Shown here in pieces: positions 7,685-64,000 of a DNA stretch of 64,000 bases. The notes beneath the pieces were generated by a model, which searched no databases, had not been told where the DNA came from, and saw only the letters and a program-made list of their open reading frames with translations. Positions within the stretch are counted from its first letter, which is position 1, and each line of letters starts with the position of its first letter. Origin of the DNA: Candidatus Kapaibacterium sp. (GTDB lineage Bacteria; Bacteroidota; Ignavibacteria; Kapaibacteriales; Kapaibacteriaceae). The stretch covers positions 5,963 to 69,962 of the forward strand of contig VEQR01000004.1 of assembly GCA_018883125.1 (NCBI GenBank). The letters run 5' to 3'. Made by a program: the position numbers and the translations under genes.

Positions 7685-7686
7685 GC

Positions 7687-8137: not shown

Positions 8138-8202
8138 CAAAGGGGATGCGAAGTTAAAAAAATCTTCGAACATTCACTGGTCTCACACGAGAAAGGATTT
8201 GC

Positions 8203-10308: not shown

Positions 10309-10372
10309 TTACGGAATTACTGAAGTACTGAGTTACTGAAGTACGGAATTACTGAATTACCGAATTACAGAA
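10309..10372 (+). repeat. 8-unit octamer array, [G/T]TACNGA[A/G]
   Basis: TTACGGAA TTACTGAA GTACTGAG TTACTGAA GTACGGAA TTACTGAA TTACCGAA TTACAGAA, starting at the base after the hppA stop codon. Confidence 0.9.
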
Positions 10373-10374
10373 GG

Positions 10375-10414
10375 ACGGGAGTTGCGAGGTGTTCGCGGCT
10401 CCCGTTTCTTTTTT
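10375..10414 (+). terminator. Rho-independent terminator of hppA
   Basis: Stem ACGGGAGTTGCGA / TCGCGGCTCCCGT (with G-U pairs), followed by TTCTTTTTT. Confidence 0.75.
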
Positions 10415-10503
10415 AGAGCTGAGAAATACGCGTCACACATGGGAACCTGTCAACCCTGTTTATTCGTTATGTCGGCTCTGCACAACAACATCTGCACAGG
10501 AAT

Positions 10504-17146: not shown

Positions 17147-17298
17147 TAGACGGACGGGGCGACGTGTGCCATGAAGCGAGGCGTTGTTTCACGGATGAAC
17201 GACTATCGTCAGACTCTGCTCGGTTTCTTTCTCATGCGCTCACCACGTAAGCGCGAAATCCGTGTACTTTGCGCTCGAGAAAACCGAGTACTCCAACT

Positions 17299-25338: not shown

Positions 25339-25431
25339 CGTGTTCCGCAGGTGTAAAATGTTTTGCGGGTTACCTGGAACCAATGCCGTGTCGTGGGCAT
25401 ATTTGCATGCCATATCACCCCAGGATGCAAA

Positions 25432-27975
25432 ATGAAGATCACGACGCTCCTCTGTGCTATCACACTCCTGGTTTCGACGGAGGTTTTTGCGCAGAACTAC
25501 AATCCATTGTGGATTCCCGATACCATAGCCGGTTCACAGTTCAATCTGACGATGGAAAGGGGAGTGGAGAAGTGGCTTGGGCCATCCTCTGCCGTTGAAA
25601 CAGCAGGATTCAACACGCAGCAAACGGGACGTGGCTCTTGGGGCCCGACGCTATTCGTCCGCAAGGGCGAAACCGTTACGATGAATGTCACGAACAACCT
25701 CTCGGATACTACGGCCGTGCATTGGCATGGATTCAAGATGTCCGCCGAAATGGTGGGAGGTCCAAAGCAGCGAATAGCCCCAAAGAGTTCGTGGAAATCC
25801 TCATGGAAAGTGACAAACAGTGCCGGTACATACTGGTACCGTCCAGGGTTGCATGCCAAAGCACAGGAACAGCTTCTCAAGGGGCTTGGAGGCATGATCA
25901 TCGTTCGCGACGACGAGGAAGCTAAGCTTGATCTTCCGCGCACATACGGAGTCGATGATATTCCGCTTGTCTTGAGCGACCGTGCATTTACTGCAGAAGG
26001 ACAGATAGCGGTGAGAGCATATGGCGACTCAATGCAGGTCAACGGAGTGATTCGCGCCCAATGCAATGTCCCCGGCCAAGTTGTGCGATTTCGACTCCTC
26101 AACGCGAATACTGAACGATGCTATTTCCTCGGTTTTGGAGACAACCGAAAGTTCTCCGTCATCGCAAGTGACGGTGGACTTCTCAATGCGCCTGTCGAGC
26201 TGACGAGATACTTCCTGTCACCGGGAGAACGAATCGAGATTGTGGTGAATTTCTCTGCTGACAAGGGAAAGAGCGTAAAGCTACGAGCGTTTAACAGCTT
26301 CTTGCCGCAGAGCATCTCGGGAGGAGAACGCACGCAGACGGGACCATTTGTCAACGCCCTGGCGCGCGCGGATTTCGACATTCTAAATGTTGTTGTCGGC
26401 GATCCAACTGCAAAGCCGGTCACGGCGATACCGACGCAGCTTGCAATCGTTCCACCACTGAAGGAAGCTGACGCCTTCGTGAATCGTCGAATCACGATCT
26501 CCGATAGTGTCTTGGCAACAGGCACACCAACATCCTACATGTATAACCGGAAGTTCTACAATCCGGATTCGATTGAATTCAAGGTTGGTCTCAACAACAC
26601 CGAAGTATGGGAGATCGGCAACACTGGCAACTTCTCGCACCCACTCCATATTCACGGAGTACAGTTCAACATCCTCACACGCAACGGTCAGGCATCCAGA
26701 CCTGAAGAAGCCGGTTGGAAGGATGTTGTTTTCGTTCGAAATCGTGAAACAGTGCGTGTCATTGCCAAGTTTGATGACTTCCCGGACAGCACTCGGGCAT
26801 ACGTTTTCCATTGCCAAAATGCGCGCCATGCTGACCAGGGTGAAATGGGGCAGTACGTCGTTGTCGATAATGGTAATGTGCCGACGCTTTCCTTCATGTC
26901 CACACCGGTGCGGACAGCGCGTGAAGGGACCCCATACACTTACACGTCACGCGTTGCTTCGAATGTTCAGTCTCCTGTCACATTTGCGGTTACGAGTGGG
27001 CCTGCTGGACTGACGATCAATGCCACAACCGGAGTAGTAACATGGGCAACTCCTGCTGCTGGAGCGTACGACGTGGCGTTGGCTGCATACATGGTGGTGA
27101 ACGGACAGAACTATGGTGCGCAGCAAACGTATAAGCTCACCGTTACGCCGCCGCTGACGGTAACATTCACGTCAACCCCGGTGACCACCGGATATGAGGG
27201 AGTTACCTATGCGTATGCTGTGCGTGCAAGGTGTTCAGACACGACGCGATTTCTTTCATACCGTATGGTTGACTCCGTCGCAGGTATGAACCTGTCCCGT
27301 CAGGGTCAGCTTACTTGGGCGAAGCCCGCACTAGGAACGTACAACATCGCCATTCGAGCAACGGTGAACGGAGACACGGTTAACGCTGTGCAACGATATG
27401 TGTTGACGATCGGAAGTAGTGATGCAACGCGAGTGACATTCACTACTGCTAACCTCCCGCCGGGCACAGAAGGCAAACCGTATTCGTTCAAGGTTAATGC
27501 CATGTGCACGGATTCTACCAAACGCGTTGAACTCACATTCCGTGATTCTGTGGCCGGTATGTCATTGACGCCGGCTGGTCTGCTGGAGTGGCCTGCACCT
27601 GTCATTGGGATGCACAGAATCACGATACGCGCGAAGGTCGTTGGCGATACGTTGTTTGCCGACCAGACGTTCAATTTGAGTATCCGGCCAGATACAACAA
27701 CGGATGTCGCTGAGGATCAGTCGTCATCGGCAACCTTCAGAGTCTATCCTATCCCGGCATCACAGTATGTGACCGTGGAAACAGCTGAACCGCTAAGAGA
27801 CCGGGCAACGATTTCGATCATTGACGTTTCAGGTCGGACGGTTGCATCCATACCAGTGAAGGCAGGTTGTGCAGTTTGGTCAGTCGATACAGCCTCGCTG
27901 CCGCAAGGTTCGTATGTGATACAGATCGATCAATCTGCTCGTAGGGTTAGGGTGCCGCTTCTGATCAGTCGCTAA
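25432..27975 (+). CDS. Multicopper-oxidase homologue with degenerate copper motifs, four putative-Ig repeats and a T9SS CTD
   Basis: HWHG (25720-25731), WYRPG in place of WxHPH (25834-25848), HPLHIHG (26638-26658), HCQNARHADQGEM (26809-26847). Signal peptide MKITTLLCAITLLVSTEVFAQ. C-terminus FRVYPIPASQYVTVE..SYVIQIDQ... Confidence 0.8.
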   Translation: MKITTLLCAITLLVSTEVFAQNYNPLWIPDTIAGSQFNLTMERGVEKWLGPSSAVETAGFNTQQTGRGSWGPTLFVRKGETVTMNVTNNLSDTTAVHWHGFKMSAEMVGGPKQRIAPKSSWKSSWKVTNSAGTYWYRPGLHAKAQEQLLKGLGGMIIVRDDEEAKLDLPRTYGVDDIPLVLSDRAFTAEGQIAVRAYGDSMQVNGVIRAQCNVPGQVVRFRLLNANTERCYFLGFGDNRKFSVIASDGGLLNAPVELTRYFLSPGERIEIVVNFSADKGKSVKLRAFNSFLPQSISGGERTQTGPFVNALARADFDILNVVVGDPTAKPVTAIPTQLAIVPPLKEADAFVNRRITISDSVLATGTPTSYMYNRKFYNPDSIEFKVGLNNTEVWEIGNTGNFSHPLHIHGVQFNILTRNGQASRPEEAGWKDVVFVRNRETVRVIAKFDDFPDSTRAYVFHCQNARHADQGEMGQYVVVDNGNVPTLSFMSTPVRTAREGTPYTYTSRVASNVQSPVTFAVTSGPAGLTINATTGVVTWATPAAGAYDVALAAYMVVNGQNYGAQQTYKLTVTPPLTVTFTSTPVTTGYEGVTYAYAVRARCSDTTRFLSYRMVDSVAGMNLSRQGQLTWAKPALGTYNIAIRATVNGDTVNAVQRYVLTIGSSDATRVTFTTANLPPGTEGKPYSFKVNAMCTDSTKRVELTFRDSVAGMSLTPAGLLEWPAPVIGMHRITIRAKVVGDTLFADQTFNLSIRPDTTTDVAEDQSSSATFRVYPIPASQYVTVETAEPLRDRATISIIDVSGRTVASIPVKAGCAVWSVDTASLPQGSYVIQIDQSARRVRVPLLISR

Positions 27976-34899: not shown

Positions 34900-36542
34900 G
34901 CACCCTTGATTGGGGTGTGTTTCTCGCTACGCTGCTTGGCGTAGTTCTCTACGGACTCTGGCGTGGGCGGGGTAACACCTCGGCAGACGATTATCTGCGT
35001 GCAGGACGGTCTCTCCCGTGGTATTCGGTGCTTCTCGGCGTGATGGCAACGCAGGCAAGTGCCATCACCTTTCTCTCGGCTCCGGGTCAGGCATTTACCG
35101 ATGGCATGCGCTTCGTGCAATACTACTTCGGATTGCCGCTGGCGATGATCGTCATTAGTGTCGTGTTCATTCCGATGTTTCGGACGGTGAATGCCTACAC
35201 CGCCTATGAGTTTCTCGAACAGCGGTTTGATCGTCGAACGCGGATGACAACGAGCATTTTATTTCTGCTGTCGCGAGGGCTAAGCACTGGCATCAGCATC
35301 TATGCACCGAGCATCATTGTCGCAACACTGCTCGATTGGAATATCTATGCTACAAACATCGTCGTGGGCGGTCTCTTGCTACTCTATACGCTCTCCGGTG
35401 GGGCCCGCTCGGTAGCGCACACGCAGACGCTGATGTTCGGGATCATTCTCACATCGATGGCTGTGGCAGGGGTCTTTCTCGTCCAGGGTTTCCCGAATTC
35501 AATGACGTTGGCGGATGCACTTCGGCTTTCAGATGCCGCCGGTAAACTGAACATCATCACTACAAGATTCGATCTTCATGACAAATACAACATCTGGAGC
35601 GGCCTGATAGGGGGCTTCTTTCTTGCCCTGTCATACTTCGGAACTGATCAAAGTCAGGTCGGACGATTCATCACGGGAAAGAACATCCGTGAAAGTCGCA
35701 TAGGCCTACTCGTCAATGGCATCGTTAAGATTCCGATGCAGCTTGGTATACTGCTGATCGGTGCGTTGCTTGTGGCGCTCTACAGCGTTATGCCCAGCCC
35801 CATATTCTTCAATGAAGCTGTTGCGCAACGCGTCGATCGTATCGATTCATCACAAGCATCCCTGCTGCATCAGAAGTGGGATGCGGTCAATGCTGAGTTA
35901 CGGCGCACAGCAGCGAATGTACTCGATGGAAAACCTGGTGCTAAAATCGCCTATCGTCAGACATTCGACAGCACAACGCGGCTACGCTCCGAGTACCGAA
36001 CGTTTGTTCGCTCCACGGGGGTTCTCGAGTCGAACGATACCAACTACATCTTTTTGCACTTCGTGCGAACCATGCTTCCGGCCGGTCTTGTCGGTCTGAT
36101 CTTTGCCGTCGTTATCATGGCATCGTGGGGAAGTATCTCCGCCGGATTTCATTCCCTAGCAACGGCAAGCGTGGTTGATCTGCGAGGTATCACGAACACA
36201 GCCGCCGATGTTACAGCCGCGCGCTGGCACACATTCTTATGGGCAGTGTTCGGCGTAGCGATGAGCATGCTCGCAACGCAGATGGGGTCACTCATTGAGG
36301 CCGTCAACATTCTCGGGAGCCTCTTCTATGGCCCCATTCTCGGGATCTTTCTCGTTGCATTCCTGGTCAAAAAAGCAAATGGCACCGACGTTTTCCGCGG
36401 TGCCATTGCTGCCGAATTGATTGTTGTTGCCTGCTGGGCTTTGAACGTTGTTAGCTTCCTATGGCTGAACGTTGTTGGCGCTGTTGCCGTGGTGCTGTAC
36501 GCTTTAATGAGCTCAACGTACCACCGAGAACCGGCGCGTTAA
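34896..36542 (+). CDS. Sodium:solute symporter family transporter
   Basis: About 13-14 TM helices with an SSF-like N-terminus (DYLRAGRSLPWY, FLSAPGQAF). ATGA overlap with the deacetylase gene. Confidence 0.7.
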   Translation: MSTLDWGVFLATLLGVVLYGLWRGRGNTSADDYLRAGRSLPWYSVLLGVMATQASAITFLSAPGQAFTDGMRFVQYYFGLPLAMIVISVVFIPMFRTVNAYTAYEFLEQRFDRRTRMTTSILFLLSRGLSTGISIYAPSIIVATLLDWNIYATNIVVGGLLLLYTLSGGARSVAHTQTLMFGIILTSMAVAGVFLVQGFPNSMTLADALRLSDAAGKLNIITTRFDLHDKYNIWSGLIGGFFLALSYFGTDQSQVGRFITGKNIRESRIGLLVNGIVKIPMQLGILLIGALLVALYSVMPSPIFFNEAVAQRVDRIDSSQASLLHQKWDAVNAELRRTAANVLDGKPGAKIAYRQTFDSTTRLRSEYRTFVRSTGVLESNDTNYIFLHFVRTMLPAGLVGLIFAVVIMASWGSISAGFHSLATASVVDLRGITNTAADVTAARWHTFLWAVFGVAMSMLATQMGSLIEAVNILGSLFYGPILGIFLVAFLVKKANGTDVFRGAIAAELIVVACWALNVVSFLWLNVVGAVAVVLYALMSSTYHREPAR

Positions 36543-38948
36543 ACGTCCGACTGAGGATTCAAGCACAACGGTGTACGAACCCGATGCAAGGTCGCTTACG
36601 ATGAGCTTCATATCTGTTGCACCAGCGGCTGCGGCCGTACGACGAATCTCACTGCCGGTGTTGTCGATGATCACAACCGAGTGCACATTCTGACCGTTCC
36701 AGTGCAGCTGGACAACGTCGGTTGCCGGAACCGGCCATACAGCAACGTCAACAAGAACTTCCTCATCGACGCCGGTGACCATAACACTGACCTCGTCACT
36801 CTTCGTCGAGCGACCACACTCTGATGTCACGGTGCACTGATACATACCCTGACCTTCGGCAGTAACTGATGCAATCTTGAGCGTTGAGGACGTTCCATCA
36901 GGAGCGGGGATCGCTGTGCCATTGTGCGTCCACTGGTACGTCAGGCCCGGACCTTCGGCAGCAACCGACAACTCAAGGGCAGAGCCCGCGCTGACAGATT
37001 TGGCAATTGGTTGTTTGGTGATGACGGGGCTGTCCGCGATCTGCACCTTCGCCGCATCGCTGGTCTTCGATCCACACGTGGTGGTAAGGACAACGTCATA
37101 CGAGCCGGATGAGTTTGCGGTCGGTGACGCAATGCTGTAGGTGGCGTTTGTTGCACCGTCAATGTTCGCTCCGTCTTTCCGCCACTGATAGGTAGTGCCC
37201 GGCGTTGTTGTTGCAACCGATAGCGTGAGCTGGCGTCCGGAACAAGCTGTGACGCCCAGTGGCTGTGTTGTGATGGCCGGAACAACCCCCGTTGTAAAGG
37301 TCAGGGGGCTTACTGCGACATTGCCGCGACTTGACCGAACGCGCAACTGGATCGAACCGACCATGTCTTCGGCCTTTGGCGTCCAGCTATATGAGCGCGT
37401 CTTCAGACCGGAGACAACGGATGTCCACGCCTTCCCGTCGGTAGAACGCTGCACAGAATATGTGTCTGATGCCTGCATCCCATCGGCACCCCATGTGATC
37501 GACACTTCTGATCCTTCGCAGAGCGATGGATTCTCGGTTGGTGTGCGCCACGTCATTACGCCGAAAGGATACTTTTCAACGAATGCCGTGAAGGCAGATG
37601 CTCCAACCGCTTTCCGGGAACCAACGCGATAGACGTCATCGTACGAATCAACGGCGAGTGCCAAAGGCTGATCTGCACCTGGTGTTCCCGTGATCGTGCA
37701 ATATGTCTGCTCCAATGTGGTGAAACGAACGAGGAAGCCATCCTGCTCGCCCCGTGCCTGTGAGGATGCCCCGAGTCCAACCTCGGGGATGGATGCCGTT
37801 GTGGTGCCGACAGCGGTAACGATCGAGCCAACCGAGCGAGCTCCGGTGATCCGATCGTCTCCCGCACCACCGACATACTGCGCCGAAACAAGCTTGAGAC
37901 CATTCGATGATACTGCGGCATAGAAGCCGTCATTCTTGCCACCGAACGTTGAATTCACTTCGGCAGGTATAGGCAGATCTGCTGAGCTGGTATATCCAAG
38001 CAGGTAGGCTACGTCTTCCGCGCCAACGGCAACGCTGGTTCCGATATCCACGCCTGCACCTCCGAAAAAGGCGGAGTAGACCATTGTGCCGCCAAGTTGA
38101 ATCTTGATTACTACGGCATCCTGACCGCCACCAAAGGAGTTGTCAAAACACACATTCCCCGTTTCCTCCCAGTGGCCGGTCGCACAGCCATAGTACGGAC
38201 ATCCTCCGTCATCAACCCAGACGCGATTCTTCACGGGAAAGGTTGGGAAGTCAAGGGAGGCAGTGTATCCACCAATCACGGCGTTATTCTTGGAGTCAAC
38301 AACGACAGATGTCATTTCATCATTCTCCACTCCGCCGAGGTAGCTCGCGGAGTTCACGAACTTCCCGAAAGCATCTAAGGAGATGTAGAAGCCGTCGTTC
38401 TTACCATTCTGTGTTTCGTCAAAGCTGTTGACCGTTGGCAGCGACTTTGCTGATGCGATGCCACCAACCACCACCACATCGCCCAAAGGTCCGATCGCGA
38501 TTGCATTGGCACGGTCTGCTCCGGTTCCTCCGATATACATCCCAACTAGGACCGTCTTTAGATCTGCCGATAACTTCGCAACGAAACCATCGGTCGCCCC
38601 CTTGAACGCTCCCTTAAGGGGCGAAGCAGGGAATGGCAGGTCGTTTGACGTTGTCTCGCCGCAGATCCATACCGACCCATCGGCTGCCACGGCCATCCCC
38701 GTAATAATGTCTTTGCCAGAACCACCGAAGGTGGCCGATGCCACGACAGATTCGAGATCAGAGGCGTGGACGACGATGGCCCCGTCGGTGTTGTCGGCTT
38801 GTGTCACGTTGCCGACGGAAATGATGTAGCCGTTCTTCAAGATCATCGTCGCCGTAGCTTCGGTCATCTTCTCGAAGGTGTTTTGCGAGAAAACATTGGT
38901 CAATGAAACGACGGTTAACGCGCAACAGATGAGAAGAGGTTTGATCAT
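36513..38948 (-). CDS. Secreted SBBP beta-propeller-repeat / Ig-like-domain protein with T9SS CTD
   Basis: Repeats of the type Y.GG.G.D.A.AIA....G.VVV.G.T.S.D.P. Three Ig-like modules (..YQWRKDGANIDGATNATYSI..SGSYDVVLTT.CG..). C-terminus VAVWPVPATDVVQLHW..SYTVVLES... Confidence 0.75.
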   Translation of the reverse strand: MIKPLLICCALTVVSLTNVFSQNTFEKMTEATATMILKNGYIISVGNVTQADNTDGAIVVHASDLESVVASATFGGSGKDIITGMAVAADGSVWICGETTSNDLPFPASPLKGAFKGATDGFVAKLSADLKTVLVGMYIGGTGADRANAIAIGPLGDVVVVGGIASAKSLPTVNSFDETQNGKNDGFYISLDAFGKFVNSASYLGGVENDEMTSVVVDSKNNAVIGGYTASLDFPTFPVKNRVWVDDGGCPYYGCATGHWEETGNVCFDNSFGGGQDAVVIKIQLGGTMVYSAFFGGAGVDIGTSVAVGAEDVAYLLGYTSSADLPIPAEVNSTFGGKNDGFYAAVSSNGLKLVSAQYVGGAGDDRITGARSVGSIVTAVGTTTASIPEVGLGASSQARGEQDGFLVRFTTLEQTYCTITGTPGADQPLALAVDSYDDVYRVGSRKAVGASAFTAFVEKYPFGVMTWRTPTENPSLCEGSEVSITWGADGMQASDTYSVQRSTDGKAWTSVVSGLKTRSYSWTPKAEDMVGSIQLRVRSSRGNVAVSPLTFTTGVVPAITTQPLGVTACSGRQLTLSVATTTPGTTYQWRKDGANIDGATNATYSIASPTANSSGSYDVVLTTTCGSKTSDAAKVQIADSPVITKQPIAKSVSAGSALELSVAAEGPGLTYQWTHNGTAIPAPDGTSSTLKIASVTAEGQGMYQCTVTSECGRSTKSDEVSVMVTGVDEEVLVDVAVWPVPATDVVQLHWNGQNVHSVVIIDNTGSEIRRTAAAAGATDMKLIVSDLASGSYTVVLESSVGRLTRRFSVVR

Positions 38949-54542: not shown

Positions 54543-55676
54543 CTACGCTACCGCCTGCTCAACATCCGCCATCAGGTCCTCGACATCCTCGATGCCGCAG
54601 GAGAGGCGGATCAGGCCTTCGGTGACGCCGAGCCGTTCGCGCTGTTCTTTGGGGATTGAGCCATGCGTCATGCTAACTGGGTGGCAGACGAGTGACTCGA
54701 CTCCGCCAAGGGATTCGGCGAGAGTGAACAGCTTGAGCTTGTTTGTTACTTCAATGGCGCGTTCACGGGACCCGAGTTCAATGGAGATCATTCCACCGAA
54801 CACCGACATCTGACGCTTGGCAAGCTCGTGTTGCGGATGGTTCGTAAGGCCAGGATAATGCGTTGCCAGGATCTTGGAATGCTGACCGCAGAACTCGGCA
54901 ATACGCTGAGCATTTGAACTGTGGCGATCCATCCGAACGGGAAGGGTCTTCGCCGACCGCAATAGAAGCCAGCAGTCAAAGGGGCCCGGCACAGCGCCTG
55001 CCGCATTTTGAATGAAGCCGAGTTGTTCGGCAATGGACTCGTCGTTTGTCGTCACAATGCCGCTAACAAGGTCACTGTGTCCGCCGAGGTATTTCGTTGC
55101 GGAATGGACAACGATTGAAGCTCCCATTTCCAGAGGTCGCTGTGCGTACGGGGTGGCGAAGGTGTTGTCGACCACCATATAGCAGTGCGCCTGGCGGGCG
55201 ATCGAGGAGATTGCCGCAATGTCCGTTATCGTCATCATCGGATTCGTGGGCGTTTCCGTGTAGATCATCTTCGTGTTCGGGCGCACTGCATTGGCCACAT
55301 TCACGGGGTCACGCATATCCACGTAGGAGAAGTCCAAACCGAATCGACGGAGAATCCTCTCGGCCAGACGGAAGGTGCCCCCGTACATGTCTTCGGCCAT
55401 TATCACATGATCTCCGGATGACATCAGGCGCATGATTGCATCGATAGCGGCTAGCCCGCTTCCAAAGGCGAAGGCGTCAATGCCCCCTTCCATCGCGGCC
55501 AGATTATCTTCCCATGCAAAGCGTGTCGGGTTTTGGGTTCGGGCATACTCAAATCCGGTATGGCGGCCGATCTCATGCTGGGCATAGGTTGAGGTTTGGA
55601 ATAACGGCACTGTAACGGCGCCAGTTTTTTCTTCGGGTTCCTGGCCGATGTGGATGGCCTTGGTGGCAAACTTCAT
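54543..55676 (-). CDS. Cys/Met-metabolism PLP enzyme (cystathionine gamma-synthase / beta-lyase family)
   Basis: MKFATKAIHIGQEPE.. N-terminus and PLP-lysine motif HSATKYLGGHSD. Confidence 0.85.
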   Translation of the reverse strand: MKFATKAIHIGQEPEEKTGAVTVPLFQTSTYAQHEIGRHTGFEYARTQNPTRFAWEDNLAAMEGGIDAFAFGSGLAAIDAIMRLMSSGDHVIMAEDMYGGTFRLAERILRRFGLDFSYVDMRDPVNVANAVRPNTKMIYTETPTNPMMTITDIAAISSIARQAHCYMVVDNTFATPYAQRPLEMGASIVVHSATKYLGGHSDLVSGIVTTNDESIAEQLGFIQNAAGAVPGPFDCWLLLRSAKTLPVRMDRHSSNAQRIAEFCGQHSKILATHYPGLTNHPQHELAKRQMSVFGGMISIELGSRERAIEVTNKLKLFTLAESLGGVESLVCHPVSMTHGSIPKEQRERLGVTEGLIRLSCGIEDVEDLMADVEQAVA

Positions 55677-55687
55677 GGCAACTCCTT

Positions 55688-55719
55688 CAAACGAAACGAG
55701 CCACCAAAGGCGGCTCGTG
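55688..55719 (-). terminator. Rho-independent terminator
   Basis: Stem ACGAGCCACC / GGCGGCTCGT (one mismatch). The minus strand continues TTTCGTTTG. Confidence 0.55.
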
Positions 55720-55743
55720 AAATGATCAATCGAGAGTAGGTTG

Positions 55744-56268
55744 TTATCGACTAAAGAAGAACTTTTCGGCCTTCCGGAAGTTGTTGCCCTGCATCACACA
55801 CATGTAGACGCCTTCGGGCAGGTCAGACACGGACTGCGCATGCTCATGGATGCCGCGGGCTGAGGCGCCTTTGTACACTTCCATGACACGCTTGCCAAGC
55901 ATGTTGAAGATTGCAATGTCGACAAGGGGCTCGTCTGTTGCCATCTCGATCTTGGCCGTGAACACTTCAGCTGCAACTCGGGTTGAAATGATGCGCGGTG
56001 CCGCAACGCTGGAGTCCCGGCCCATGGCGGTCTTGCCCTGTGCGCGCATTTCCGCGCCGTCCCTGCGGGCCGTCAGCGTGCGCAGAGCGCTACTCACAGC
56101 ACGGTTTACCGGGGAATAGCTACCGCCTGTTGACGATTTTGTCGGCACCCGAGACGTAGTCCCACGCTTGTCGTTTTCGGCGTGAGCCGGCATCGACAAT
56201 GCGCCCAGCATGAGCACTGTAAAAAGTGCACTGAGGAACGGGGCTATATGTTGGCGAAGTGGCTTCAT
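55744..56268 (-). CDS. Small secreted protein consisting of little more than a T9SS CTD
   Basis: Signal peptide MKPLRQHIAPFLSALFTVLMLGALSMPAHA from ATG at 56268. C-terminus ..IAIFNMLGKRVMEV..LPEGVYMCVMQGNNFRKAEKFFFSR. Confidence 0.6.
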   Translation of the reverse strand: MKPLRQHIAPFLSALFTVLMLGALSMPAHAENDKRGTTSRVPTKSSTGGSYSPVNRAVSSALRTLTARRDGAEMRAQGKTAMGRDSSVAAPRIISTRVAAEVFTAKIEMATDEPLVDIAIFNMLGKRVMEVYKGASARGIHEHAQSVSDLPEGVYMCVMQGNNFRKAEKFFFSR

Positions 56269-56365
56269 CCGCTCTGCAAGATAACGAACCAAAATGCAAC
56301 AACCAATAATCATGCCAGAGGCCACCAGCAGTGCGCTCCGAGTGTGCCCGGAAAAGTCAGGGGTC

Positions 56366-56401
56366 TGAAAAAGAAAACGGCGACCCATAGGGGTCGCCGT
56401 T
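56366..56401 (-). terminator. Rho-independent terminator of the giant cargo gene
   Basis: Stem AACGGCGACCC (56376-56386) / GGGTCGCCGTT (56391-56401). The minus strand continues TTTTCTTTTTCAG. Confidence 0.85.
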
Positions 56402-56427
56402 GAAGCTTCTAAGGATTGTGCTGACTC

Positions 56428-59400
56428 TTAATCAGCGATCATCAGACGCTGTGTCTGGTCGAACTCTACGGTGCGCATACGCACGAAGTATGCACCTGAA
56501 CCCAGACCCTGAGTATCGAAGCTCAGATCATACTCACCCACCTGCAACTTGGAGCTGACAAGCGTGCGAACCACCGCCCCTTGAGCATTGATCAGCTCAA
56601 TGGTGGTTGGCGCAGAGATGCCCACGCCGAACGTGAGCTTGGCAACACCTGAGCTGACCGGGTTAGGAGAAACCGGGGAGATCATTGAGCGGGCCGAGGA
56701 GATCTCGACAACGCGACGGGAAATTGCGCAGTTGAAGATTGCGGTCGAATCACCAGACGTTGATGGCACCAGACATGGACGCCCGAGATCGATCTGCAGA
56801 TCTTGCTTTGCCGAAAGCTTGTCGGTAAGCAGAAGCGATGTGCCAAAGGAGAAGATCGGACCGTTTGTGGCGATACGATTCTGACCCGTACAGGTGAACG
56901 TCAGCTTCGAAACAGATGGCGAAACAACGGCAATTGTTGGATTGCTGATGAGCCAACCAGGTGCGGCGGCAAGCGTCTGTACCGTGTTGGCTTCGAAACC
57001 GATCGTCGCTGGGTCAAAAAGCACTTCGGCCGTGAATGAACGCAGGTTGGCGCTGGCCCAGTCATTGGAAGTTCCGCTGACCGTGAAGTTGACGCGCGAA
57101 CCAGGGTTGCGACTTTCGCTGCCTGCCAGGTCATTGGTGAGATTCATCGTCACTGGGACAACGAATCCAACGCCTGTCATCTTTGCCACAACTGTCTTGA
57201 ATGATGTTGCTTCACCCTGAGCATAGCCGTCGATCTCGAACTGGGCGGAATAGTTGTTGTCAGCCCATGGAGCCGCATTTGGCAACGTCGGCGTGAACTG
57301 CACGCGAACGGTAAATGTCTGGCCCGCCGTCAGGATGAGCGGGAACGCCACCGGCTGACTGTTCACGTCAAGAACCTGGACGATCTTGAAGGCTGCTGCA
57401 TCTGGACCCTTGGCGCGAATGTCCTTGATCTCAAGGGGCTTCAGCGAGCCACTTGGATTGTTGATCTTGAATTCCTTGGTCGGTTGATCGCAGTTCGCAA
57501 GATTCCGTCCGAAGTCCAGATCCTCTGTTGTGATGTCTGGCGAAGAGCACGAAGCAACCGATATGCGCTGTGTGTGCGGTCCAACCGGTGCCAGCGTCGT
57601 TGCGTCAACACCAGTTCCCGGCGTAGCATCATGCACAACTTCGATGTCTGCCGTCGTTGCACTGCCATTGCCGATTGGGCGCGTGTAGGCGACCGTTATC
57701 GGGTAGGTTCCGCCGTTTTCGCGAACCGTTACAGGGAAGGTCGGTGCTGTGATAAGAGCATATCCTGCCGGAGCTCCGGCCACAAGGCTGATGTTTGTGA
57801 TCGTCAGTGGCATGGTGCCACCGTTGGTCAGCGTGATGTCGCGACGAACTTCATCACCTTCTGGAGTCTCCGCACACGTGAGGGTGATCGGATTAGAGTT
57901 GATCTTTGGAATGATGCCCTCGCCGATCAGACGAGATGTGCGGGCATCTTGCGTAGTTGACCAGACAGGCTGGATCTCAACATTGTAGATCTGCTCGGCA
58001 TCCGGACGGAAGAACACCTCAACGTCTGCTGTGTCGCCCTTCAGTGCGACCGTGGTGACGGTTGTTCCGTTTTTCTTGATGTCGCCGATCTTAAAGACGA
58101 AGTTGTTCTCGTTCGATCCGGCTGGGTAATACTTGCCCCCTGACAAGAAGTTGACATCGTTGAGCGTGATCTCCTGGTTGCCTGTGTTGTACACCCGCAC
58201 CGTCCATGGGTGACGAGTTCCTACGCGGCGCTTGAGCCAGTCGTAGCCGGTGATGCCAGGGCCCGGCGTCTGAGTGTTGCCGGTCCACTTGGAAACAGAG
58301 TCCGGACCATCGCCATTGCTGCTGAAGGTCACGTCTTTTGTTTCGTCGATGACCTTGTCGCTGACAAAGCAGACATCCTTCAGTTCCACGGAGCCCTTTG
58401 GCGGAATGATGATCGGCAGGGCTGGCGTGAAACCGGCAGACAGCGAGAATGCCGATGGATCGTATCCAGTGATGCTGGTTATCACCAGCGTATCAGAGCC
58501 CGGATTTTCAATGAGTACTCCTGCGCAATACTTCTCGTTCAGACCTCTCGTACCGGCATCAAAGTCGCGAACCTTGATGCGTGGGATTGCGGCCACACCC
58601 TGCAGGCCGTGCTTAAACTGACCGCAACCCGTTGTGACAATGAGCGTATCCTTGTCCCAGTCCTTCAAGATGTCTGTTGTCTCGCGTGTTCCCAGGTATT
58701 GAATGTCGAATGTGTAGGTACCACGGGCCGGGATCTTGACCTCCTGGCCATTAGGGATTGCCCCCGATACCAGCTTGAAGTACGTTCCAAGTTTGATCTT
58801 CGAACTCGTGAGCTTGACCTCTGCGTCCTGGTTGTTCGTTACCGTAAGCGTCAGGGTCTTGTTTGCCCCTAACCGAAGCTTGCCAAAGTCGAGCGGGTTT
58901 GGCACGAAAGCGATCTTGTCGGCAAAGTAGGTGCAGGTGTCAACGGTGATGTTTCCGGCGAAGTCCGCCACGAAATAGATAGCCCGTGCATCCTTGCTCT
59001 TGTCGATTACCTGCCACTCGTATTTGAAACGCTTGTAGGCAACAGCTTGCGGGAAGGTCTGGTCTGTGATGAGCACGAGACGGTAGTTGTAGCTGCCTCT
59101 GCCATCAACAGTATCTATCTGAGCGATACCCGTTTCTACCTGGTCAGTGTCAATCGGCGGAGTCTTTGGAGGGTCAGGAATATTGCGAAGTTCGGTCGCC
59201 TCGAAGGTGTAATCGCCGCAGAGTGAATCACCCTTGATGACAGGGGGCATGGTGTCCACCGAAGTTGTCGGGCGGAAACCTGCCGCAGCCGGCCAGCCGT
59301 AGGCGTCAACGGCACCGAATCCGTAGATGTATCCTCCAAAGCTCACAAGGCCATTGCTCTTGATTCGGTGCGCCCGTGCTTCTGTTCCAAATTCGATGCC

Positions 59401-60786
59401 GGCAAAGTACATGCCGTTGGGCATGCGTGAGAACAGGAGTGACGGCTTGATCGCTTTACCGTTATTCCAGACTGGCTGACCGTCGATCTCCAGCGACTTC
59501 AAGTTTTCGATGAGGTTGGGATCCGACGTATCGGTCTTGACGATGAGATTGAGATAGTGCTTCGTGAACTGACTCATCGTTGGCGACTGGAATATCGTAC
59601 TCGTTATGAACTGCTCTTCCGGAGTAACGCAGAACATGAATGGGTCAAGGATCGGGTCTCCATCCCATGTTGACGAACACGAGTACTGCATGAGGAAGAC
59701 CGGTTTGTTGGCCTCCCATACCGAGAAGCCTTCAACAAGGGCCGTCGGCAGTGTAGCGTTTACTTCGTCTTGGAAGTCGCCCGCATTTATGAGCAGCCCC
59801 CCGCGGCGACCAAGCAGTTTGCCAGTGGTTTTATCGTAAAAGTTGCACGACCATTTCGTCTGGGGTTCCTTGCAGACGATCCGGAAAGCGTCTCCACGCC
59901 CGGCTAGGAGTCGGGCTCGCTGCAGCTCCAGAGATACGTACCGCTTACCCCACGTGTTCACTGGGGGAAGCATCTCGCATAGGTGATTGCGGCCACTGCC
60001 TTGGATGAGCAGATTGGGCATGGTCGTGCGCATGTGAAAGCCGATCACACCAACCGGCTTGTCAGCGTTGATGAGGGTTCCAGTCAAGTCGAACTCGCCT
60101 CGCGTAGTGCCATCGCCGTGGACCATGTAGATCTCGCCTTCGTCAAGGGTCACCGTGATCTGTTCCTTGAGCTTGCGGCCGTTCGCAGTTTGTGCTGCCC
60201 CTTGACCACGGAGAAGGATCTGAAGGGTGGTCGGTTCCTTAGCAATAACAATGAAGCCGCCCGGCCATGGCCTGATTTCTTTGAAGTCTGAGTAGGCACA
60301 CGCGATGTACTCCGTGCCCCAACCGTTTGTGGGAATCGCCATATAGCCGTCGGTGGTCGCCTGTTTGGAGTTGATCACATACACCGAGATCGGCTTGTCG
60401 GAGGTCAGACGCAGCGCTTTCCGCACCGGTATCTCGGCATCGCGATTCTCCATCGACCAATTCAGTACCGGTTTGCCACTCTTGGCATTATCCGATAGGG
60501 TCAGAATTTCCATCGCCTTAATCTTAAATCGCGTCTCCTTGTCACCAGCATAGTCGAACAACTTAACCTCGGCATCAAAGGCCGATGCCACGTAGATTTC
60601 GACGCCCACCGGCGGGTACGCTCCAACCTCATTCGGCGGGATCGTCAGAAAGAACTCCGTGCCTTGGCTGCCGGTATTGAGGATGTTCTCAACGCCCGGC
60701 TTTTTGCGCTGCGCAACGGCCGACGTTGACGCGCCAATGGCAATGGCGGTGACCAATAGAATCAGATAAGCGAAACGCTTAAGCAT
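56428..60786 (-). CDS. Giant T9SS cargo protein (1452 aa): IgGFc-binding-N-terminal-like module, then about 7 ASH/choice-of-anchor-D-like beta-sandwich domains, then a T9SS CTD
   Basis: Start MLKRFAYLILLVTAIAIGASTSAVAQ (ATG at 60786). GTEFFLTIPPNE.., ..SDKPISVYVINSKQATTDGYMAIPTNGWGTEYI... Repeats of the type NPLDFGKLRLGANKTLTLTVTNNQDAEVKLTS. C-terminal ..GAVVRTLVSSKLQVGEYDLSFDTQGLGSGAYFVRMRT... Confidence 0.8.
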   Translation of the reverse strand: MLKRFAYLILLVTAIAIGASTSAVAQRKKPGVENILNTGSQGTEFFLTIPPNEVGAYPPVGVEIYVASAFDAEVKLFDYAGDKETRFKIKAMEILTLSDNAKSGKPVLNWSMENRDAEIPVRKALRLTSDKPISVYVINSKQATTDGYMAIPTNGWGTEYIACAYSDFKEIRPWPGGFIVIAKEPTTLQILLRGQGAAQTANGRKLKEQITVTLDEGEIYMVHGDGTTRGEFDLTGTLINADKPVGVIGFHMRTTMPNLLIQGSGRNHLCEMLPPVNTWGKRYVSLELQRARLLAGRGDAFRIVCKEPQTKWSCNFYDKTTGKLLGRRGGLLINAGDFQDEVNATLPTALVEGFSVWEANKPVFLMQYSCSSTWDGDPILDPFMFCVTPEEQFITSTIFQSPTMSQFTKHYLNLIVKTDTSDPNLIENLKSLEIDGQPVWNNGKAIKPSLLFSRMPNGMYFAGIEFGTEARAHRIKSNGLVSFGGYIYGFGAVDAYGWPAAAGFRPTTSVDTMPPVIKGDSLCGDYTFEATELRNIPDPPKTPPIDTDQVETGIAQIDTVDGRGSYNYRLVLITDQTFPQAVAYKRFKYEWQVIDKSKDARAIYFVADFAGNITVDTCTYFADKIAFVPNPLDFGKLRLGANKTLTLTVTNNQDAEVKLTSSKIKLGTYFKLVSGAIPNGQEVKIPARGTYTFDIQYLGTRETTDILKDWDKDTLIVTTGCGQFKHGLQGVAAIPRIKVRDFDAGTRGLNEKYCAGVLIENPGSDTLVITSITGYDPSAFSLSAGFTPALPIIIPPKGSVELKDVCFVSDKVIDETKDVTFSSNGDGPDSVSKWTGNTQTPGPGITGYDWLKRRVGTRHPWTVRVYNTGNQEITLNDVNFLSGGKYYPAGSNENNFVFKIGDIKKNGTTVTTVALKGDTADVEVFFRPDAEQIYNVEIQPVWSTTQDARTSRLIGEGIIPKINSNPITLTCAETPEGDEVRRDITLTNGGTMPLTITNISLVAGAPAGYALITAPTFPVTVRENGGTYPITVAYTRPIGNGSATTADIEVVHDATPGTGVDATTLAPVGPHTQRISVASCSSPDITTEDLDFGRNLANCDQPTKEFKINNPSGSLKPLEIKDIRAKGPDAAAFKIVQVLDVNSQPVAFPLILTAGQTFTVRVQFTPTLPNAAPWADNNYSAQFEIDGYAQGEATSFKTVVAKMTGVGFVVPVTMNLTNDLAGSESRNPGSRVNFTVSGTSNDWASANLRSFTAEVLFDPATIGFEANTVQTLAAAPGWLISNPTIAVVSPSVSKLTFTCTGQNRIATNGPIFSFGTSLLLTDKLSAKQDLQIDLGRPCLVPSTSGDSTAIFNCAISRRVVEISSARSMISPVSPNPVSSGVAKLTFGVGISAPTTIELINAQGAVVRTLVSSKLQVGEYDLSFDTQGLGSGAYFVRMRTVEFDQTQRLMIAD

Positions 60787-60982
60787 GAAGCCTCCAAACG
60801 AAAAAATGTCGTTTTCAGAGCAGGTGAGCATGGACGGCCCTGCATGCTCTGGAGTCGCATGCAAAGACACGCTTCCCCAGGCAAGAGACCTATCTCTCAC
60901 CCCATAACCCGATAATAAACAAAAAGTTGCTACAGGGGTTCCATTTTCCCGGCCGGAAATTTCCCTAAAATTGGTGCCCTCG

Positions 60983-63484
60983 TTAATGAGCGTAGAAAAG
61001 GGGGCGGGTACAACGTAGGGTTGGGCCCGTTACGCTGACAAGGTAGAGCCCTGTTTGCAGTCCGGTGAGATCAAGAACTGCTGGTCCACCGGTGGGCGCC
61101 GACGTTGTTGCCATGAGACGTCCACGCAGGTCGAAAACCTGCACCAAAATGCCCGTTGCATCATCGGTGAGGGTGACCGTTGCCGAGCTCCTGTCAGCAT
61201 TCAGCACAACATCCACACACGGACTTGGAGTGTTGTCGGCGGCAACGCTTGTTGTGGGTGAGTAGCGAATGGTGTCGGTGGAGATATTCCCAGCCCGATC
61301 GCGCGCCGTGATCGTTGCCATTGCATTTGCGCTCGCATCCTCCACAAACAGCGAGAAGGCAGTCCGGGGCACCATCGAATCCGGCGAGAACTTCATTGTG
61401 CCTCCGACGTACCGCATGTTTACGCGCTGAACGGTGACCTCTGAGAGCCCCCTATCAACCTGATCACCGGCAACGGGGCAACTGCGGGGAGGATTTGGCC
61501 GATTCGACTCTTCGGTAACGGCTATGTCCCACATGGTATTCTTCGCTGTCGTGCGAGTGATCGCAGGCTTGGCGGTGTCGACCGTAGTAGCCGGCGTGTA
61601 GATGAGACTGTCAATCGTTTTGTTGCCGGCAAAATCACTGACGGCATACACTGCCCTGGCGGGACGACGGCCATCGATAACCGTCCATTCGTAGGTGAAT
61701 TTTTTATACGGACTCTGGTTTGGAAACATTTGATCTGTGACCAACACGATTCGGTAGTTAGTCGACCGCATGCCCGGCACCGTGTCGATTGAAGCGATTC
61801 CGCTTTCGACCTGGTCGCCAGCCTGAGGTGTAGCTCGTGGTGGATCAGGTATGTTGCGAAGCTCTGTTGCCTCGAAGCGAAAGCCTCCGCATGCGCCACC
61901 AATTGGAGCTTTTGTGATCAGGGGGCGCATGGTGTCCTTGGTCTCAACAGAACGGCTTAGTGCCAGAGGCCATCCATAGGCATCGACGGAACCGAAGCCG
62001 TACACGTATCCGCTAAAGCTAGCGCGGCCATTACTTGTGATACGATGAGACCGTGCTTCTAATCCAAACTCCACACCAGCGAAGTACATGCCGTTGGGCA
62101 TGCGGGAGAACAGAAGCGATGGTTTTGTGGCCTTAACGTTGTTCCATACCGGCTGACCATCAATTGCAATGGACTTCAGATTCTCTTCGAGATTGGGGTC
62201 TGTGGTATCAACTTTGACAACAAGGCTCAGATAGTGCCTCGAAAATTGACCCATGGTAGGGGTGGTAAACACTGCTTCCGAAGAGAATTGTTCTTCCGGC
62301 GCTATGCACATCATAAATGGATCCAGAATCTGGTCGCCATCCCACGTTGAAGAGCAGGAGTACTGCATCAGCAGGATCGGCTTGTCTGCTTCCCAGACGG
62401 AGAAGCCTTCCACCGAAGCAGTTGGTTGCGCGGCTTGTACCTCGTCAGCGAAATCACCGGCGTTCTTGAGAAGGCCGCCACGTTGGCCGAGCAGATTGCC
62501 GGTGGACTTATCATAGAACTTGCAGGTCCAGCGTGTGTCGTCGTCCTTGCATACCACACGAAAAACATCCCCTCGTCCGGCGAGCAGTCGTGCACGCTGA
62601 AGCTCCAGAGTTGCAAATCTTTTTCCCCATGCTGTTGTCGGCGGAATCATCTCGCAAAGGTGGTTTCTCCCATTGCCATTGATGAGCATGTTGGGCATTG
62701 TGGTGCGCATGTGGAACCCGATGACGCCAACGGGTTTGTCTGCCGTTATCAGAGATCCGGTCAGGTCGAACTCTCCGCGAGTTGTCCCGTCACCATGCAC
62801 CATGTACACTTCGCCCTCATCAAGGGTGACGTCGATGACATCACCGATGGACTTACCTCCGGATGTTTTGGCAAGCCCCTTGCCAGCTCCTCTGAGCTGG
62901 ATCGTAAGCTTCGTCGGCTCCTTGGCGATGATGGTAAATCCGCCGGCCCACGGTCTGATCTCTTTGAAATCCCAATATGAACATGGTATGTATTCTGTGC
63001 CCCAGCTACTGGTTGGAATCGCCATGTAGCCGTCGGTTGTCGTCTGTTTGGAGTTGATCACGTATACCGAGATCGGCTTGTCGGACCTCAAACGCAGAGC
63101 TTTCCGAATTGGAATCTCGACATCGCGATTCTCCATCGACCAATTCAATACCGCTTTGCCGCTCCTGGCATTATCCGATAGGGTCAAAATTTCCATCGCC
63201 TTAATCTTAAATCGCGTCTCCTTGTCACCAGCATAGTCGAACAACTTAACCTCGGCATCAAAGGCCGATGCCACGTAGACTTCCAGTCCAACAACCGGGT
63301 ACGCTCCGACCTCATTCGGCGGTATAGTAATGAAGAATTCCGTGCCTGTGTTTCCGGAACTCAGCACCGTCTCGGCTGCAGGGGGCTTGCGGTCCTGCGC
63401 GGTGAACGTGGCGAATCCAGCGACGAGACACAGAATGAATATCGTCGTATGCCGGCACAGCGAACTTTGCATGAATGACATCAT
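60983..63484 (-). CDS. Paralogous T9SS cargo protein (833 aa): the same N-terminal module, a duplicated 115-aa module, and a T9SS CTD
   Basis: Start MMSFMQSSLCRHTTIFILCLVAGFATFTAQ (ATG at 63484). The N-terminal ~500 aa are colinear with the downstream paralogue. C-terminus ..VQVFDLRGRLMATT..GLYLVSVTG... Confidence 0.8.
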   Translation of the reverse strand: MMSFMQSSLCRHTTIFILCLVAGFATFTAQDRKPPAAETVLSSGNTGTEFFITIPPNEVGAYPVVGLEVYVASAFDAEVKLFDYAGDKETRFKIKAMEILTLSDNARSGKAVLNWSMENRDVEIPIRKALRLRSDKPISVYVINSKQTTTDGYMAIPTSSWGTEYIPCSYWDFKEIRPWAGGFTIIAKEPTKLTIQLRGAGKGLAKTSGGKSIGDVIDVTLDEGEVYMVHGDGTTRGEFDLTGSLITADKPVGVIGFHMRTTMPNMLINGNGRNHLCEMIPPTTAWGKRFATLELQRARLLAGRGDVFRVVCKDDDTRWTCKFYDKSTGNLLGQRGGLLKNAGDFADEVQAAQPTASVEGFSVWEADKPILLMQYSCSSTWDGDQILDPFMMCIAPEEQFSSEAVFTTPTMGQFSRHYLSLVVKVDTTDPNLEENLKSIAIDGQPVWNNVKATKPSLLFSRMPNGMYFAGVEFGLEARSHRITSNGRASFSGYVYGFGSVDAYGWPLALSRSVETKDTMRPLITKAPIGGACGGFRFEATELRNIPDPPRATPQAGDQVESGIASIDTVPGMRSTNYRIVLVTDQMFPNQSPYKKFTYEWTVIDGRRPARAVYAVSDFAGNKTIDSLIYTPATTVDTAKPAITRTTAKNTMWDIAVTEESNRPNPPRSCPVAGDQVDRGLSEVTVQRVNMRYVGGTMKFSPDSMVPRTAFSLFVEDASANAMATITARDRAGNISTDTIRYSPTTSVAADNTPSPCVDVVLNADRSSATVTLTDDATGILVQVFDLRGRLMATTSAPTGGPAVLDLTGLQTGLYLVSVTGPTLRCTRPLFYAH

Positions 63485-63501
63485 GATGTTACCTCTCACA
63501 G

Positions 63502-64000
63502 TTATCGAGTGTAGGAATAATGACGCGTACAGCTCCAATCGCGGCTGCTGACGCTGATGAGGAAATGCCCTGTATGGAGATCCGAGAGATCGATCGTGAT
63601 TGTTCGGCCATTGATGTTTGGCAAGGATTTCACCTTGCGACCCTGTAGGTCGTACACGTCGACGTTGATCCCTGATTCGTTGTCGGGAAGATTGATGTGC
63701 ACTACACCTTGGCACTTGTCAGGAGTTACGTCAAAGCATGGGTTCGCGGAGACGTCGTCCTGCACATCAGCAGGAGGGTTTGTCGGAATCTCGCCGAGTT
63801 GGTTTGGGAGGGGCCATCCGTAACAGTCGACAGGAGTATACCCGTAGACGTAGCCGCCGAAGCTGACCGAGCCGCTGCCAGTGATCCTGTGTGCTAACGA
63901 ATCAGCCCCTATCTCGATCGAACTCCAGAACATCCCGTTCGGCATTCGACTAGAGAGAAGTGGCTGTTGAGCCTTCGGATGATTCCAGACCGGTACGCCG
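63502..64000 (-). CDS. 3' part of a third paralogue (N-terminus lies beyond the window end) with T9SS CTD
   Basis: The frame is open to the window edge. ..SRMPNGMFWSSIEIGADSLAHRITGSGSVSFGGYVYGYTPVDCYGWP.. aligns with ..SRMPNGMYFAGIEFGTEARAHRIKSNGLVSFGGYIYGFGAVDAYGWP.. of the other two. Ends ..VDVYDLQGRKVKSL..GHFLISVSS... Confidence 0.75.
   Translation of the reverse strand, partial: GVPVWNHPKAQQPLLSSRMPNGMFWSSIEIGADSLAHRITGSGSVSFGGYVYGYTPVDCYGWPLPNQLGEIPTNPPADVQDDVSANPCFDVTPDKCQGVVHINLPDNESGINVDVYDLQGRKVKSLPNINGRTITIDLSDLHTGHFLISVSSRDWSCTRHYSYTR

Follow-up and report, generated by a model that had tools for sequence, protein, structure and literature searches.

The FCGBP_N domain was defined by Lang et al. 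2016 and later became the Pfam family PF17517 (PMC4948705). It is a large and widespread extracellular domain, which animals from ctenophores to humans possess, as do many Bacteroidota. In that survey, 564 bacterial FCGBP_N proteins were reported, mostly from Flavobacteria, Cytophaga and Sphingobacteria; the domain was usually N-terminal and the proteins secreted, they often carried CHU_C, PKD or SprB domains, and the authors speculated on a link with gliding (PMC4948705). Because the N-domain of human FCGBP did not bind IgG when tested (PMC8267560), the family name IgGFc_binding is uninformative on function here. The PDB entries 8RDE and 8R0T represent mouse FCGBP, which lacks N1, and no solved structure covers the domain (PMC11796319). 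Here, we investigated four neighbouring genes (A, B, C and D) in a stretch of 64,000 nucleotides (nt) from Candidatus Kapaibacterium sp. (contig VEQR01000004.1), hereafter called the window. We found that A, B and C encode paralogous proteins with an FCGBP_N head, all four products end in a type IX secretion (T9SS) sorting domain, and gene conversion homogenises the heads that neighbouring genes encode. Our preferred interpretation, to which we give a probability of about 0.6, is that they belong to a lineage-specific (Kapabacteria/Ignavibacteria-type) family of T9SS cargo whose heads bind a ligand, as a surface adhesin or coat. An earlier annotation made from the DNA letters alone (the sequence-only reading) had said that no function is known for the head in bacteria; the literature that we searched agreed, holding no functional study of bacterial FCGBP_N proteins, and none on the function or expression of Kapabacteria surface proteins, beyond Lang et al. 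2016.

Domain make-up of the head proteins

The four genes lie on the minus strand and fill the last 8.3 kb of the window (Table 1). The three consecutive paralogues proposed by the sequence-only reading were found where it had placed them, although its word "giant" was generous for proteins of 606-1452 amino acids (aa). The frame of gene A was open up to the window edge; its full product, P0068 (606 aa), is encoded on the same 82,805-bp contig and has an identical C-terminus. The start codons of B and C agreed with the lengths of their orthologues (831-836 aa and 1449-1455 aa, respectively), and the C orthologue P0010, 92% identical to C, has the same first residues. The similarity among A, B and C far exceeds what chance would give. 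B and C were 70% identical over 619 aa (937 bits), A and B were 58% identical across the ..SRMPNGM..GGYVYG..VD.YGWP.. stretch (E 2e-24), and A matched C with E 3e-25, so that the colinear region described earlier for all three proteins was recovered. The N-terminal module said to be shared by B and C was also present, but it covers about 620 aa (the head plus the first 115-aa module) rather than about 500.

The shared head is about 470 aa long and starts at residue ~39-47, right after the signal peptide. The suspected relationship to IgGFc_binding was borne out: the full PF17517 model (positions 1-297; gathering cut-off 25.6 bits) matched B with 149.4 bits (E 1.8e-43) and C with 140.1 bits (E 1e-40), and the family is listed in the database for P0068. 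In B, a beta subdomain of about 100 aa precedes the PF17517 match and belongs to the same compact unit. Behind the head the three proteins differ. In A, the end of the head, which is the part inside the window, was followed by a linker of about 25 aa and then by a T9SS type-A C-terminal domain (CTD), with no stalk, as had been described. In B, two 115-aa modules stand between head and CTD, again as described; they are 33% identical to each other, share the motif ATELRNIPDPP...DQVE.GIA.ID...D.AGN, and are predicted to be beta-sandwiches. No Pfam family matched this module or the first ~100 aa of the head. The product of C is the longest and runs from the signal peptide through the head, one 115-aa module, five immunoglobulin (Ig) domains and an unassigned domain to the CTD. 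The Ig domains, of the choice-of-anchor-D/ASH-like kind, were delimited with an iterated profile at aa ~623-1200. The choice-of-anchor D model NF012200 matched C in three stretches with 87.8 bits (cut-off 45) and did not match A or B, and ASH/HYDIN-type Ig models matched C in the Pfam scan. The earlier description of C was therefore right about the single module and the domain type but not about the number, since about seven ASH-like domains had been counted, against five found here plus one domain of ~170 aa without a family. A cohesin-like guess for this last domain, taken from its sequence pattern, was dropped after neither Pfam (with the single sequence and with 17 orthologues) nor a profile search of the PDB gave a match.

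Signal peptides were judged by inspection. Each had a hydrophobic core followed by A-x-A and then Gln: SFA/QDRK in A, ..FTA/QDRKPP in B and ..AVA/QRKKPG in C (the slash marks the end of the signal peptide). The same A/Q end was seen in all C orthologues, and Gln at position +1 corresponds to the Q-rule of Bacteroidetes (PMC5837995). Each of the four products passed at least one of the two models of the type-A CTD (cut-offs 23 bits for TIGR04183 and 27 bits for PF18962), as the sequence-only reading had anticipated for a Por-type CTD: A scored 31.2 bits on PF18962 and 22.7, just below the cut-off, on TIGR04183, whereas D passed TIGR04183 (25.1 bits) and stayed below the cut-off on PF18962 (25.2 bits); the scores of B and C are given in Table 1. 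CTDs of this type were also found on at least four further open reading frames (ORFs), making at least eight in the window altogether, so the genome probably uses the T9SS widely.

An AlphaFold2 model of the head of B (residues 43-512, alignment of 48 sequences) predicted one compact all-beta unit with a mean local confidence (pLDDT) of 93 and a predicted template-modelling score (pTM) of 0.93; the model of the whole B protein had a pLDDT of 86. Within the head, two consecutive segments of about 115 aa (head aa 81-196 and 197-312, window ~62423-63118) showed detectable mutual homology (hhalign 95.8%, E 7e-9), and part of the head therefore derives from an ancient internal duplication. Searches of PDB sequences with phmmer and with a profile gave matches to the CTD only. 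When the head alone was compared with solved structures by Foldseek, the best query-normalised template-modelling (TM) score was 0.16; a head subdomain of 117 aa resembled TM1070 (1nc7), which is uninformative, and the whole B model gave only generic Ig-array matches (TM ~0.1). The predicted fold is thus confident and without a solved counterpart. The sole whole-fold match in any structure library was the predicted structure of FirrV-1-C4 (BFVD Q6XLX4; E 3e-13, TM 0.51, 11% identity), a protein of Feldmannia irregularis virus a, a phaeovirus of brown algae; the 2016 survey did not report FCGBP_N from protists, plants or their viruses (PMC4948705).

At the sequence level, relatives of the head were abundant. 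Among 1.84 billion representative proteins, a head-only search collected 343 clusters with E <=1e-30; at the wider limit of E <=1e-3 there were about 5,000 (50% identity), and the head was N-terminal, starting at residue 25-70, in all of the 150 best representatives. A PF17517 protein of Bernardetia sp. (Cytophagales), itself scoring 214 bits on that model, aligned colinearly with residues 5-468 of the head (BLASTP E 4e-18, 21% identity), and several polar residues that are invariant in the head, including N-H-x-x-E, persist in it. The protein exceeds 1640 aa and combines PF17517 with Ig_7 repeats; it is encoded on the plasmid NZ_CP147021.1 (positions 5905-10842 of the fetched locus L082), spans the start of the circular record and has no feature in the plasmid gene table.

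The conserved residues bring in the idea that these proteins are secreted soluble enzymes, with a catalytic head (such as a hydrolase or lyase that depends on a metal and attacks polysaccharide) and Ig domains that serve as spacers or substrate-binding accessories. We consider this unlikely. Invariant His, Glu, Asp, Arg and Lys residues do occur in the head, among them a GRNH-x-x-EM motif whose N-H-x-x-E core is kept at 21% identity in Bernardetia, and the weak Foldseek matches fell on beta-sandwich parts of glycoside hydrolases of families GH78, GH32 and GH2 and on cupins. Enzymes are also numerous among type-A CTD cargo, including the multicopper oxidase and the glucose/sorbosone dehydrogenase of the window, and many T9SS-secreted glycoside hydrolases carry Ig-like spacers or accessory domains. 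Those structural matches, however, had TM scores of at most 0.16 and low probability, no enzyme family matched in Pfam, NCBIfam or the PDB, and one catalytic domain on three stalk lengths would be hard to explain in a soluble enzyme. Moreover, metazoan FCGBP_N proteins are without reported enzymatic activity (PMC4948705, PMC8267560).

Given the earlier speculation on gliding, we also weighed whether the proteins are gliding adhesins of the SprB/RemA kind, moved by a T9SS-linked motor. FCGBP_N is concentrated in gliding Bacteroidetes and in Myxococcales and co-occurs with SprB and CHU_C (PMC4948705), and the homologue in Bernardetia, with its Ig_7 repeats, is very large. The CTDs found here are nevertheless of type A, not the type B/CHU_C of SprB (CHU_C gave no match on A, B or C and 14.4 bits on D, against 27 bits required), the Pfam scan found no SprB repeats, and no PorP/SprF-like gene lies beside the cluster, whose neighbours are housekeeping genes (a Cys/Met pyridoxal-phosphate enzyme, an aldehyde dehydrogenase and a transketolase). 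Taken together, a role in gliding, which is itself hypothetical for this uncultured lineage, appears very unlikely.

Gene conversion and stalk exchange

Comparison of genes B and C at the nucleotide level revealed a stretch of 265 nt with only 19 mismatches (93% identity, about 97% in a 160-nt core), while identity elsewhere was 67% (positions in Table 1). Within the stretch, 78 of 88 third codon positions were identical, against 40% outside. Here C shared 93% identity with B but only 81% with its own orthologue, although the product of that orthologue is 92% identical overall, and at the informative sites of the core C agreed with B over the orthologue agreeing with B by 23:0. In 2000 shuffles, a segment score as high as the observed one never occurred. 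This stretch is a gene-conversion tract.

The same tendency was visible among the relatives. We screened the ORFs of 81 related loci with the head profile. A neighbour-joining tree built from 41 heads placed neighbours of one genome together whatever their stalk type, with 50/50 bootstrap support for four of the five within-genome pairs. Head identity was 65-84% within a genome and 52-60% between proteins of the same architecture in different genomes. The likeness of heads within a genome, together with the B/C tract, led us to conclude that heads are homogenised while stalks are swapped.

The complete head proteins fell into discrete architecture classes: head only (7), head with one module (6), head with two modules (8), head with one module and two Ig domains (14), and head with one module, five Ig domains and the unassigned domain (47). 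Three of these five classes are united in the window locus. The C-type gene of about 1450 aa was the constant member among the compared loci; upstream of it there were 0, 1 or 2 further head genes, and many relatives carried only the C-type gene. In the closest relative, whose C product is 92% identical, a single gene of 932 aa with a module+Ig stalk stands in place of the genes for 606 and 833 aa. The upstream part therefore turns over fast while C and D persist. In the relatives, the C-type gene, D and a Cys/Met-metabolism gene formed a syntenic core; in the closest genomes the genes after C and D were those of the window, for Cys/Met metabolism and an aldehyde dehydrogenase, and in four syntenic relatives the upstream flank was a divergently transcribed transketolase gene. 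The formula "constant head, variable stalks" of the sequence-only reading is well supported by these classes, in a comparison with 80 related loci, and by the different upstream gene of the closest relative. Its word "diversifying" fits only in part: stalks and copy number vary, but the heads are homogenised by gene conversion, and C and D are stable.

In some relatives, namely L005 (10001-15064) and L046, two head genes of about 840 aa are convergent, not tandem; in these loci, the head profile covered just half of the second copy's head, the first (profile positions 3-217). The named homologues were labelled as metagenome-assembled genomes (MAGs) of Candidatus Kapaibacterium/Kapabacteria, Ignavibacteria or Bacteroidota, and none came from a cultured organism. 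Several loci of the Kapabacteria type (L011, L021, L037, L039, L040, L048-L050 and others) bear the submitter labels Patescibacteria, Hyphomicrobiales, Bradyrhizobiaceae, Chitinophaga pinensis or Didemnitutus, probably through binning or labelling errors.

Recombination at a putative surface-protein locus could also point to a contingency locus, in which stalks and copy number are reshuffled to vary the target of a phage or predator and so to escape recognition. The number of upstream paralogues and the stalk type do differ among close relatives with fixed flanking genes, and recombination between copies is demonstrable. Against this, no tandem or simple-sequence repeats and no inverted repeats were found in 55600-64000, and neither the locus nor its surroundings contain a diversity-generating retroelement, a reverse transcriptase or a recombinase. 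Conservation is highest in the presumably exposed part, the head, and this part is homogenised instead of diversified, and the differences were seen between species-level genomes, not between strains. Such a function is accordingly highly improbable.

Gene D and the signals around gene C

The product of gene D consists of a signal peptide (a hydrophobic core, then ..AHA/EN), a segment of about 75 aa rich in Ser, Thr, Lys and Ala, which is of low complexity yet conserved, and a CTD-like domain. It had been described as essentially a bare signal peptide plus CTD, which does not hold: the orthologues were conserved over the full length, the middle segment included (E 1e-30 to 1e-91). The CTD-like domain was highly conserved (..YNMLGK..DLPEGVY.C..QG.NFRKAEKF..SR), more so than typical cleaved sorting domains, suggesting that this domain is itself functional. 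A D-like ORF was found no more than 200 nt downstream in 35 of 53 complete C-type genes; the other 18 belonged to one locus of the closer clade (L050) and to the distant clade, with C-type products of 1407-1503 aa. Within the closer clade, D is thus the conserved downstream partner of C. A homology of D to PorA was considered and rejected: no PDB sequence, PorA-N included, matched at E values up to 10, and a FimH-like N-domain is absent.

The non-coding regions supplied further signals. The spacing between A and B is exactly 17 nt, just as had been reported, and contains a GAGAGG motif resembling a Shine-Dalgarno sequence. Upstream of C, an alignment of C-type genes (window 60787-60935) showed two nearly invariant non-coding blocks, gcaactttttgtttattat and gacattttttcgtttGGAGGcttcATG, with about 100 variable nt between them; both were kept in 9-15 genomes despite coding identity down to 55-75%. 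The leader before C is about 120 nt long, and its GGAGG initiation region was invariant among C-type genes. The block gcaactttttgtttattat can be called promoter-like by its conservation and position only; a sigma-70 promoter scan of the region found no site. In the closer genomes, a GGAAC-like motif was seen about 17 nt 5' of the first block and may belong to an ECF-type promoter. A structured RNA in the leader was rejected, as the RNAalifold consensus reached only -3.7 kcal/mol with little covariation, and the Rfam scan gave one sub-threshold chance match, to the Mn riboswitch (E 0.66), inside gene D. The terminator announced after the last paralogue was recovered as a hairpin behind C (Table 1). 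The promoter-like block, the leader, the GGAGG and the terminator hint weakly that C may be strongly expressed.

These signals bear on another explanation, in which A, B and C are subunits of a coat like a surface layer (S-layer): the heads would touch laterally as a lattice, D would be an anchor or assembly partner, and conversion would keep the interfaces compatible. In its most explicit form, which we regard as speculative and improbable, the heads of A, B and C stand at three fixed heights and, with D, build a T9SS-anchored multi-tier coat that substitutes for an S-layer in Kapabacteria, conversion keeping head-head contacts compatible. Neighbouring heads do evolve in concert, C and D are a conserved pair, stalk lengths come in discrete classes, and the promoter-like block, ~120-nt leader, strong ribosome-binding site and terminator of C recall highly expressed envelope genes. 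Yet concerted evolution is expected from plain tandem homology too, the Pfam and NCBIfam scans found no S-layer or anchoring domain (such as SLH), and the many relatives with the C-type gene alone indicate that a multi-paralogue lattice is not required. An S-layer-like lattice is consequently doubtful as an explanation, and improbable on balance.

Table 1. Positions of the genes, domains and signals described in the text (window coordinates; aa, residues of the respective product)
Feature	Position	Strand	Remarks
Gene A	63502..64000, runs past window end	-	C-terminal 165 codons of the 606-aa protein P0068
Gene B	60983..63484	-	833 aa, start MMSFMQ...
Gene C	56428..60786	-	1452 aa, start MLKRFAYL...
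Gene D	55744..56268	-	174 aa
Head of B	aa 43-512; 61949..63358	-	PF17517 match aa 151-496 (61997-63034)
Two tandem ~115-aa modules of B	aa 510-630, 629-743; 61256..61957	-	Profile E 8e-40, 7e-10
CTD of B	60986..61216	-	TIGR04183 28.6 bits; PF18962 24.5 bits, just below cut-off
Head of C	aa ~39-503	-	PF17517 match aa 146-489
115-aa module of C	aa 504-622	-	Single copy
Conserved ~170-aa domain of C	aa ~1195-1372	-	Two invariant Cys, no family match
CTD of C	aa 1373-1450	-	TIGR04183 35.9 bits, PF18962 33.5 bits
Gene-conversion tract, B copy	63015..63279	-	nt 206-470 of gene B
Gene-conversion tract, C copy	60332..60596	-	nt 191-455 of gene C
B-C intergenic region	60787..60982	-	196 nt
Promoter-like block gcaactttttgtttattat	60930-60912	-	In B-C intergenic region
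Translation-initiation block gacattttttcgtttGGAGGcttc	60810-60787	-	Invariant, directly before the ATG of C
Terminator-like hairpin after C	56376..56401	-	11 pairs, 8 G-C, T-run; 27 nt past the stop of C
Terminator-like hairpin after D	55696..55718	-	10 pairs, 7 G-C, T-rich tail
CarboxypepD_reg/He_PIG protein	252-2948		Por_Secre_tail CTD
Glucose/sorbosone dehydrogenase	17269-18876		Por_Secre_tail CTD
Multicopper oxidase with He_PIG	25363-27975		Por_Secre_tail CTD
Ig-domain protein	36513-38948		Por_Secre_tail CTD

Elsewhere in the window, an ORF of 684 aa (12983-15037) combines a polyethylene-terephthalate-hydrolase-like/S33 alpha/beta-hydrolase domain (PF12740, E 3e-14) with PKD and adjoins a gene for a TonB-dependent receptor (10504-12915).

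Proposed function and comparison with known systems

Based on the architecture of the proteins and on the behaviour of the locus, we propose the following course for ligand-binding T9SS cargo. Each protein would be exported by Sec, its signal peptide ending at A/Q, after which the type-A CTD would be recognised by the T9SS and the protein carried across the outer membrane. By analogy with the type-A cargo studied so far (PMC9143113, PMC7712824), the CTD would then be removed and the protein fixed on the cell surface or released. The all-beta FCGBP_N head of about 470 aa is probably the working part, held at the far end of a rigid stalk that consists of 115-aa modules and Ig-like domains, and the stalk would set its distance from the membrane: none in A, two modules in B, and a module, five Ig domains and the extra domain in C. 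From this arrangement, the heads may attach to a ligand outside the cell, which is probably a glycan or a polymer of the matrix. The small protein D, presumably secreted, is genetically tied to C, and C and D form a fixed core, upstream of which paralogues are gained, lost and restalked by recombination while gene conversion between neighbours keeps the heads alike. The adhesin-like or S-layer-like role and the surface exposure suggested by the sequence-only reading are putative, as is high expression of the locus.

Several points weigh against this proposal. Production, secretion and surface binding are what we infer from genomes, and all relatives are uncultured MAGs. Neither in structure nor in sequence does the head have a relative whose function is known, so binding is argued from architecture only, and the conserved polar motif could equally mark a metal site or a catalytic one. 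The 64-kb window contains no gene of the T9SS machinery. The sorting domains are not uniformly strong either: the CTD of A is marginal on TIGR04183 (22.7 against 23), and those of B and D miss the Pfam cut-off, with the other model passed in each case.

The locus does not change the understanding of T9SS cargo, and the finding is real and tidy rather than surprising. With an uncultured organism, direct tests will also be difficult. Its use lies elsewhere. The family provides compact heads for structural and binding studies, as its smallest members (570-606 aa) have the head joined directly to the sorting domain, and the display of one head on different stalks is a natural experiment. It is also a clear case, at the level of a locus, of a head homogenised by gene conversion while the stalk is exchanged.

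With respect to known systems, three groups of proteins and one small protein invite comparison. The type-A cargo of Porphyromonas gingivalis and Flavobacterium johnsoniae (gingipains, Hbp35, RemA and others) likewise begins with a Sec signal peptide followed by Gln (+1) and, like the window proteins, ends in a beta-sandwich sorting domain of about 75 aa matched by TIGR04183/PF18962. The passenger domains are unrelated, however, and processing by PorU with attachment to anionic lipopolysaccharide has been shown only in these model species. PorA of P. gingivalis (PGN_0123; PMC7712824) is, like D, a small protein made of a signal peptide, a short N-part and a CTD. It signals the status of the T9SS, and such small CTD proteins can therefore be components or regulators and not ordinary cargo (PMC7712824). 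The two nevertheless differ: PorA has 246 aa with a folded FimH-like N-domain of about 144 aa, whereas D has 174 aa with a low-complexity segment of about 75 aa and is tied to one cargo gene, not to por genes. The N1 domain of human FCGBP belongs to the same Pfam family and takes the same N-terminal place on a secreted, extracellular-matrix-associated (mucus) protein (PMC4948705, PMC11796319), but it is followed by 13 vWD-C8-TIL units and by no T9SS-like CTD.

The closest counterparts are the bacterial FCGBP_N proteins (PMC4948705), exemplified by the one from Bernardetia. They have the same head after the signal peptide, colinear over about 470 aa from G(T/K)EF(F/W) to YVYG.G..YG, and proteins of the Bernardetia type share with those of the window the order of head, Ig-like repeats and T9SS sorting domain. 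They differ in the CTD, which is of type A (TIGR04183) in the window and CHU_C/type B in the known proteins, and in the stalk, which is built from the family-specific 115-aa module and choice-of-anchor-D domains instead of Ig_7, PKD or SprB repeats. Unlike them, the window genes stand in tandem as a ladder of stalk lengths, gene conversion homogenises their heads, and the longest member, C, is paired with a small conserved CTD protein. The window proteins are therefore new members of a recognised kind, FCGBP_N-headed T9SS cargo, with a different CTD type and stalk, and the behaviour of their locus, in which heads are homogenised and stalks exchanged, is previously unreported as far as we searched.

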